Assembly (NCBI RefSeq): GCF_026571515.1
Contig: NW_026858322.1
Location: 1 to 64,000 of the forward strand
Origin: Ruditapes philippinarum
Lineage: Eukaryota
DNA: 64,000 nucleotides
Direction of reading: 5' to 3'
Shown piece by piece: positions 545 to 1,840 of the stretch. The position numbers were made by a program, and so were the translations under genes. Under the pieces are notes generated by a model that was not told the DNA's origin, ran no database searches, and worked only from the letters and a program-made list of their open reading frames with translations. The first letter of the stretch is position 1; each line of letters begins with the position of its first letter.

Positions 545-1840
545 CTGCTCTTCTGCATCATCGGCCTTCTCTAACATCTGTATAGGTTTTCTCGGGATGA
601 CAAGAAAATGTGTGGGAGCCTGAGGGCTCATATCATTGAAGGCAACACACTGAAAATTTCAATACATTATATAAATGAAGGCTCCAAATTGATAATATCA
701 ATACATTGTATAAATGAAGGCTCCACACTGAAAATATTAATACATTGTATAAATGAAGGCTCCAAATTGATAATATCAATACATTGTATAAATGAAGGCT
801 CCACACTGAAAATATTAATACATTGTATAAATGAAGGCTCCAAATTGAAAATATCAATACATTGTATAAATGAAGGCTCCATACTGAAAATATCAATACA
901 TTGTATAAATGAAGGCTCCAAATTGAAAATATCAATACATTGTATAAATGAAGGCTCCACACTGAAAATATCAATACATTGTATAAATGAAGGCTCCATA
1001 CTGAAAATATCAATACATTGTATAAATGAAGACAAAAGTAACATACTGAAAATATCAATACATTGTATAAATGAAGGCTCCATACTGAAAATATCAATAC
1101 ATTGTATTAATGAAGACAACAGTAACATACTGAAAATATCAATACAATGTATAAATGAAGGCTCCACACTGAAAATATCAATACATTGTATAAATGAAGG
1201 CTCCACACTGAAAATATCAATACAATGTATAAATGAAGGTCACACACTGAAAATATCAATACATTGTATAAATGAAGGCTCCAAACTGAAAATATCAATA
1301 CATTTATAATTGAAGGCTTTACACAGACAATATTATTACATGAGTTTTATACCTGAAAAAAAATCCAGGGGTCTAATCAAGGAGATTGCCATAGACAACA
1401 GCATGGAGCTTTATGATCACTGGCATAGAGTGCCAGTAAATAATAAAGCTATAGACTACCTGTGTTACTAGTCATCAGTAGGGCATACCGTTTTAATTTA
1501 TTTCATTATAACTGTTTATGATAAGGTACAGATCCATTTCGAAATAAAAGAATCAAGTCAAATATTGAATTTATATCAAATAAATGTATTCTTTCATAGA
1601 GTAAATGAAATTTATTTGGCAAGTACGACACTGCTCGAGGACGAATCGTACAATTAATTTCTGTTACTCTTTTTCCTAAGAAATGAGAGGAATGTCATTT
1701 GATTGTTTATGACTAACATAATTTTTTACCTTGTCATCTTCGTAAATAAATTTACAAGGTATGTCGCCTCTAGCTATTTTTCCAAATATAGTGTCTTCTG
1801 TCGGTTCAGCCACTTGGGCTTTCGCTATTTCGTCAGCCAT
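545..1840 (-). CDS. HINT1: Histidine triad nucleotide-binding protein 1, partial: exon 1 1840-1730, exon 2 649-545; exon 3 (HIT motif) presumably left of the window
   Basis: Spliced translation [72 protein letters not shown]; canonical GT/AG junctions; 111- and 105-nt exons both end in phase 0. Confidence 0.95.
637..1318. repeat. 39-bp tandem array (about 17 copies) made of the HINT1 intron 1 / exon 2 acceptor junction
   Basis: Minus-strand unit tttatacaatgtattgatattttcag|TGTGGAGCCTTCA versus real junction gtattgaaattttcag|TGTGTTGCCTTCA. Confidence 0.93.

Follow-up and report, generated by a model that had tools for sequence, protein, structure and literature searches.

A tandem array of splice-acceptor copies in a HINT1-type gene of Ruditapes philippinarum: probably a skipped, near-neutral 'mirage' minisatellite

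How is one 3' splice site singled out when 16 copies of its own junction precede it in the same intron, and does the number of such copies matter for the gene? This question is raised by a locus of the mollusc Ruditapes philippinarum, found in a stretch of 64,000 nucleotides (NCBI RefSeq assembly GCF_026571515.1, contig NW_026858322.1, positions 1 to 64,000 of the forward strand), which is called the window below. The HINT1 locus at its start provides a ready-made system for testing how a 3' splice site is chosen, being a short, well-expressed gene of three exons, the natural alleles of which would place from one to 16 or more near-identical acceptors before the real one.

The preliminary description, made from the letters of the window only, had named the gene HINT1, and this identification stands. 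The coding part of exon 1 (1730–1840, minus strand; 37 codons, phase 0 end) is covered by RNA contigs and reads and aligns to residues 1–37 of solved HINT1 structures (E = 3.6e-12), while exon 2 (545–649, minus strand; 105 nt or 35 codons, with its donor at 544) matches the Pfam HIT domain (E = 6.9e-9) and HINT1 residues 38–71. Intron 1 (650–1729, minus strand) is 1080 nt long with GT..AG ends, and its joint 649/1730 is present in the runs X6, X16 and X24. The splice from exon 2 to exon 3 is likewise present in RNA. Exon 3 itself lies outside the window, as the contig stops 544 nt past exon 2; it occurs once in the assembly, on contig C3380, which carries a second copy of the locus, and the window copy's own exon 3 was not found there. 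As read from C3380, exon 3 includes the histidine triad, aligns to HINT1 residues 73–126 and scores 83.7 bits against HINT2 vs 78.3 bits against HINT1. With Pfam HIT matches in exons 2 and 3 and a protein of HINT1 length devoid of an N-terminal extension, the gene would, by its sequence, be of the HINT1 type within the HINT1/HINT2 branch of HIT proteins. Other HINT-family matches to exon 3, with 65–83% amino-acid identity, are located on C2675 (twice, as a tandem pair), C4871 and C4099.

Downstream of exon 2, matching between the window and C3380 ends a few bases past the donor (window 441–534 and 1–270). Intron 2 of the window holds a repeat present on dozens of other contigs, as well as a 30-mer and an 11-mer array of 3.4 copies each, before the contig stops; this looks like a mobile-element insertion in the window haplotype. 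A different high-copy repeat occupies part of intron 2 on C3380 (L002:2270–2480) and takes most of the aligned reads of the runs X22 and X23.

Over its final 0.7 kb, intron 1 is a tandem array, to which TRF assigns a period of 39 and 17.8 copies. Its minus strand holds 17 acceptor-like copies, i.e., the real one, with its last intron base at 650, and 16 extra ones, in agreement with the roughly 17-fold amplification claimed at the outset. Each unit combines 20 nt of intron end with 19 nt that stem from the beginning of the exon. The extra units follow each other head-to-tail at 670–1305 (minus strand), as delimited by TRF, the acceptor list and comparison with the consensus, and their spacing is 39 nt in 14 and 45 nt in two of the 16. 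At the far edge, a decayed copy (1305–1343, minus strand) matches the consensus at 30/39 positions, with CTG replacing CAG, and is likely, as far as its sequence tells, the oldest copy. Counted as a 17th extra copy, it agrees with the 17.8 copies reported by TRF. CAG is kept in 12 of the 16 extra copies, as had been counted before, with intact decoy AGs ending at 1286, 1247, 1208, 1169, 1130, 1085, 1046, 1001, 962, 884, 806 and 728 (minus strand); the other four carry CAA. These four alternate with CAG copies and include the one nearest to the real site, as first described, but their positions had been given 3 too low and are correctly 923, 845, 767 and 689.

The authentic junction (631–669, minus strand), whose AG ending at 650 is the sole acceptor seen in RNA, was proposed to be the template of the unit. 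A comparison designed as a check on chance similarity supports this: consensus and real junction agree at 33/39 positions, and a score of 26/39 or more is attained by 0 of the 125,124 other 39-mers of the window. Within the 1.4 Gb assembly, the 29-nt core of the unit has seven exact matches at the array, one on C3380 and none elsewhere. A dispersed satellite is thus ruled out, the core being confined to the HINT1 locus and its second copy, and a metagenome scan for the unit yielded 0 matches. A crude motif screen of the 14 other arrays of the window, weak because the genes there are unannotated, revealed no clear acceptor-type mirage. Open reading frames of 157–244 codons run across the array in other frames (window 575–1309, plus strand; 633–1106 and 667–1239, minus strand), which is the ordinary outcome expected of a 39-nt repeat, and RNA showed no sign of their translation or exonic use.

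Inner copies of the array are homogenised and edge copies divergent, the inner 39-nt units (n = 14) matching the consensus at 36–39 of 39 positions, compared to 33/39 for the real junction and 30/39 at the far edge. Moreover, the units are arranged in pairs. Units 12–13 and 14–15 are an identical 78-mer, and the mean mismatch among units 8–16 is 0.86 at lag 2 vs 2.75 at lag 1, consistent with the 78-bp higher-order dimer noticed earlier. The corresponding 78-nt dimer block (689–961, minus strand) contains the four CAA copies, each then followed by the +2 T variant. A further dimer of 84 nt (45 + 39 nt) occurs twice at 962–1129 (minus strand; units 5–6 and 7–8) with every AG intact, so that two-unit duplication appears to be a general mode in the array.

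Does the distribution of the lost AGs carry a meaning, as the preliminary description implied? Selection could have removed the AG from exon-proximal copies in order to shield the real acceptor from its nearest competitors, and the lack of an AG in the nearest copy (689) and in alternate copies up to 923 would have p = 0.0005 if the events were independent. However, all four CAA copies carry a linked G-to-T change at +2, which occurs alone also in unit 1, and two of the four share a further change at −5. Based on the shared linked change and the repeated dimer, the CAA copies are read as one event, likely a single AG mutation copied by two-unit duplication; independent selected losses were rejected on the same grounds. 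The array features 10 distinct substitution types, and the chance that one of them falls on the AG is 0.41. Furthermore, intact AGs persist 78 and 156 nt upstream of the real site, the far edge copy is also without AG, and the nearest decoy on C3380 retains its CAG 43 nt upstream of the real site there. The implied significance of the exon-proximal losses hence did not hold up, and we regard a shielding role as very improbable.

The CAA block is known from the assembly alone, since positions 678–907 are covered by none of four runs (X1, X6, X16 and X24). The array had been expected to appear in sequencing data, which holds for its units, present in contigs of three of these four runs, and fails for the CAA part. 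Copy number or CAA block could consequently be an assembly or consensus artefact. Such an error would fit the DNA run X1, which shows about three units at single-copy depth, although the X1 animal need not be the assembled one, as well as the end of the contig shortly after exon 2 and the absence of its exon 3 elsewhere in the assembly. Yet, the units differ by patterned substitutions free of indel noise, and units with matching variants (−11 G-to-A and the unit 2 variant) recur in independent runs, which leaves an artefact with little probability.

Variation in length became apparent from C3380, which is collinear with the window over about 28 kb, most long blocks having 79–98% and a few down to 74% identity. 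Between the two copies, 5 of the 216 bases of exons 1 and 2 are different, which changes one amino acid. Intron 1 of C3380 measures 488 nt and comprises the edge copy in a deleted form, a single intact extra unit with CAG and the real site, compared to 16 intact extra units in the window. Collinearity suggests that C3380 is likely the other haplotype of the locus, while it may alternatively represent a segmental duplicate. Reads of X24 carry both types of exon 2. At exon 3 and the 3' UTR (L002:2876–3233), almost every X24 read departs from the assembled sequence at many fixed positions, i.e., the C3380 haplotype is divergent from the X24 sample. Two arrays located upstream of HINT1 are 2–3 times longer in the window as well, namely a 42-mer (window 9461–12312; 67.6 copies vs 30.2 on C3380) and a 30-mer (window 4847–6048; 41.1 vs 12.9 copies), so that the window copy has the longer version of all three arrays.

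Unit order also varies among samples. A contig of 108 nt from X6 fits a cycle of unit 2, unit 1 and unit 2 with exactly 4 mismatches, one of which falls on a listed position. In X16, a contig agrees with two consecutive copies of the unit 2 type, with exactly 5 mismatches. From these partly listed differences, X6 and X16 would repeat AG-intact units in orders other than that of the window. With unit count on C3380 and unit orders in X6 and X16 differing from the window, the array is a variable-number repeat.

Use of the decoys was addressed in 6 of 24 listed runs, which were aligned (X1, DNA; X6, X16, X22, X23 and X24), the remaining 18 not being used as evidence. X6 and X16 are presumed to be RNA, their spliced contigs showing that mRNA is present; as contig data, they may have rare joints pruned, and joints with fewer than 3 reads are unlisted. 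The sole intron 1 joint in X6, X16 and X24, samples that may not carry the 16-unit allele, connects the donor at 1729 to the real AG, supported by 10 reads in X24 and by contig depths of 197.5 in X6 and 322.3 in X16. Decoy joints are absent from these three runs, within the reach of contigs that drop rare joints and of 10 raw reads, and the use of decoys envisaged in the preliminary description, checked by reads from this donor, was consequently not observed. For X24, 0 of 10 decoy reads set a 95% upper bound of 26% on decoy use in a sample that may not carry the long array, and its depth is zero across 678–1689. X22 and X23 have no exon coverage. Close to the upstream end of the array but outside the repeat, a strong, pyrimidine-rich CAG (1353–1366, minus strand), which is also present on C3380, was not joined in RNA either. 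In the window, this CAG is directly followed by GT, resembling a ratchet point, and recursive splicing found no support, as C3380 has CAG-GA and no joint was seen.

All 16 decoy offsets are multiples of 3, and any decoy, if used, would run into an in-frame stop, which falls on codon 12 in the two 45-nt units and on codon 10 in the others. The in-frame stop foreseen for the decoys therefore applies to every copy. It derives from intron sequence, and of random 13-codon stretches of window DNA 57–60% contain a stop; as a designed feature, the stop is indistinguishable from this background and was discarded. Two small duplications inside the acceptor tract would shift the decoy frame, one of 8 nt in unit 1 of X6 (window 1253) and one of 4 nt at the C3380 real acceptor (L002:2137–2148).

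Such stops could nevertheless make the array a rheostat, where more intact decoy AGs yield more stop-containing, decayed isoforms and a lower HINT1 dosage, by analogy to the human ABCA7 repeat, which influences splicing (PMC5954066). A natural allelic series of 1 to about 20 decoy acceptors, with AG present or not, would then tune dosage. Apart from the stops, the pyrimidine tract of the decoys is equal in quality to that of the real site, and X16 array contigs (depth 7.5–29.9) are 3–11 times deeper than the unique intron (2.7). AG-intact long arrays would, in this case, leak a sizeable share of pre-mRNA, and the array RNA of X16, up to 9% of mRNA depth, may be decoy-spliced RNA with its joints pruned from contigs, the undegraded remainder of this leak; decay would mask the leak in steady-state RNA. 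X6, which matches the window exactly in exon 1 and has an intron of the window type, gave a different result, with array contigs at depths of 3.6–4.9 next to 3.95 for the unique intron and 197.5 for mRNA. The match between array and intron depth means that X6 shows no sign of surplus decoy-spliced RNA. Likewise, the array contigs of X16 connect to form closed cycles of balanced depth, and one of them fits a unit order that the window lacks. This agrees with a multi-copy array, and the favoured explanation of the contig depth is a many-copy array read as pre-mRNA. Given also the lack of decoy joints and stops expected by chance (0.57–0.60), tuning of dosage by the array appears improbable. A regulated poison-splicing switch would call for a conserved form, whereas copy number and unit order vary within the species.

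Altogether, we consider it quite probable that the array is a 'mirage', i.e., a variable-number intronic minisatellite built from the HINT1 intron 1/exon 2 junction, that it is skipped by the spliceosome in the RNA seen and that it is near-neutral; it is likely harmless clutter of variable length. An old duplication, represented by the edge copy and the one unit common to window and C3380, would have been the starting point, from which slippage or unequal crossing-over expanded the array, often by two units per step, and a single G-to-A change in one AG could have been carried along within such a dimer. As all units share an equal pyrimidine tract and identical branch-like motifs at −27 and −23, the real AG does not stand out by the strength of its site. 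It could instead win by exon definition, being the sole site with the full exon behind it and the next donor 105 nt away, while intact decoys would give exons of 183–741 nt. Any leak product is predicted to comprise 46–48 residues without the histidine triad. Stops well upstream of the last exon junction generally render transcripts decay substrates, and the leak stop, more than 100 nt before the exon 2–3 junction, would thus lead to nonsense-mediated decay. Decay of leak products would in turn make the array tolerable.

A study of human data reports that exon definition favours the sites lying nearest across the exon, while upstream 3' sites are still preferred overall, a preference that is merely reduced under this mode (PMC9225289). 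Since the preference is reduced and not reversed, exon definition alone may not explain the skipping of 12 intact AGs. Globin constructs carrying a second copy of the 3' site together with 14–205 nt of duplicated exon were reported to be spliced to the distal site only, and inefficiently (PMC5389562).

If leakage scaled with copy number, such arrays would be a neglected cause of variable expression in invertebrates with high heterozygosity, and if the dosage reading were true, mirages would be heritable expression dials rather than clutter. The favoured reading of a skipped, near-neutral minisatellite is, on the other hand, in line with what has been described for similar repeats. In the limited collection of literature searched, no published mirage of a mollusc or of HINT1 was found, and a minisatellite of the abalone TSSK1-like gene is not described as boundary-spanning (PMC6905558).

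The closest counterparts are the 'mirage' minisatellites of amphioxus, reported for Adh3, the globins BflGb6 and BflGb9, troponin C and PGBD5 (PMC3087553, PMC3902484). According to these accounts, they share with the HINT1 array tandem copies across an intron/exon boundary, a splice signal kept in many, not all, copies (12/16 for HINT1) and edge copies that escape homogenisation, and the HINT1 unit of 39 nt falls within the 10–72 bp reported for Adh3. Copy number differs between haplotypes in both cases, with 6 vs 3 for BflGb6 and 16 vs 1 for HINT1, where allelism is inferred. Normal splicing is described as undisturbed in amphioxus, and in HINT1 the real AG is the only joint, with rare use below the resolution of the data. 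Boundary span, signal retention, length variation, regular splicing and edge divergence, five features of mirages, are therefore all found in the HINT1 array, which is distinguished by its occurrence in a mollusc gene, the larger contrast in copy number (16 vs 1) and recognisable higher-order repeats of two units. For the Adh3 mirage, somatic instability has been reported as well.

Human genes provide further parallels, as far as the published descriptions go. The 844ins68 variant of CBS is the single-copy equivalent on the acceptor side (PMC7490669, PMC1334203), with one extra copy and no tandem expansion, compared to 16 in HINT1; a hotspot remark on CBS is also found in the literature (PMC2630376). 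In the 37-bp VNTR of F7 intron 7, the end unit of a minisatellite spans the exon boundary, as in HINT1, and identical pseudo-sites are normally silent while the exon-adjacent site is used (PMC1557585). This repeat acts on the donor side, its mechanism having been tested by mutation, whereas the HINT1 array concerns the acceptor side and is known from sequence and RNA runs. The 25-bp VNTR in intron 18 of ABCA7 resembles HINT1 in a splice site within the repeat and a large length variation, and use of an internal unit leads to a premature stop, as predicted for the HINT1 decoys (PMC5954066). That repeat lies on the donor side, and both aberrant isoforms and effects of length have been measured for it, in contrast to the acceptor-side HINT1 array, for which no use of decoys was seen. 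The HINT1 array is hence a further example of a described type of repeat, of a kind known from lancelets and human genes.
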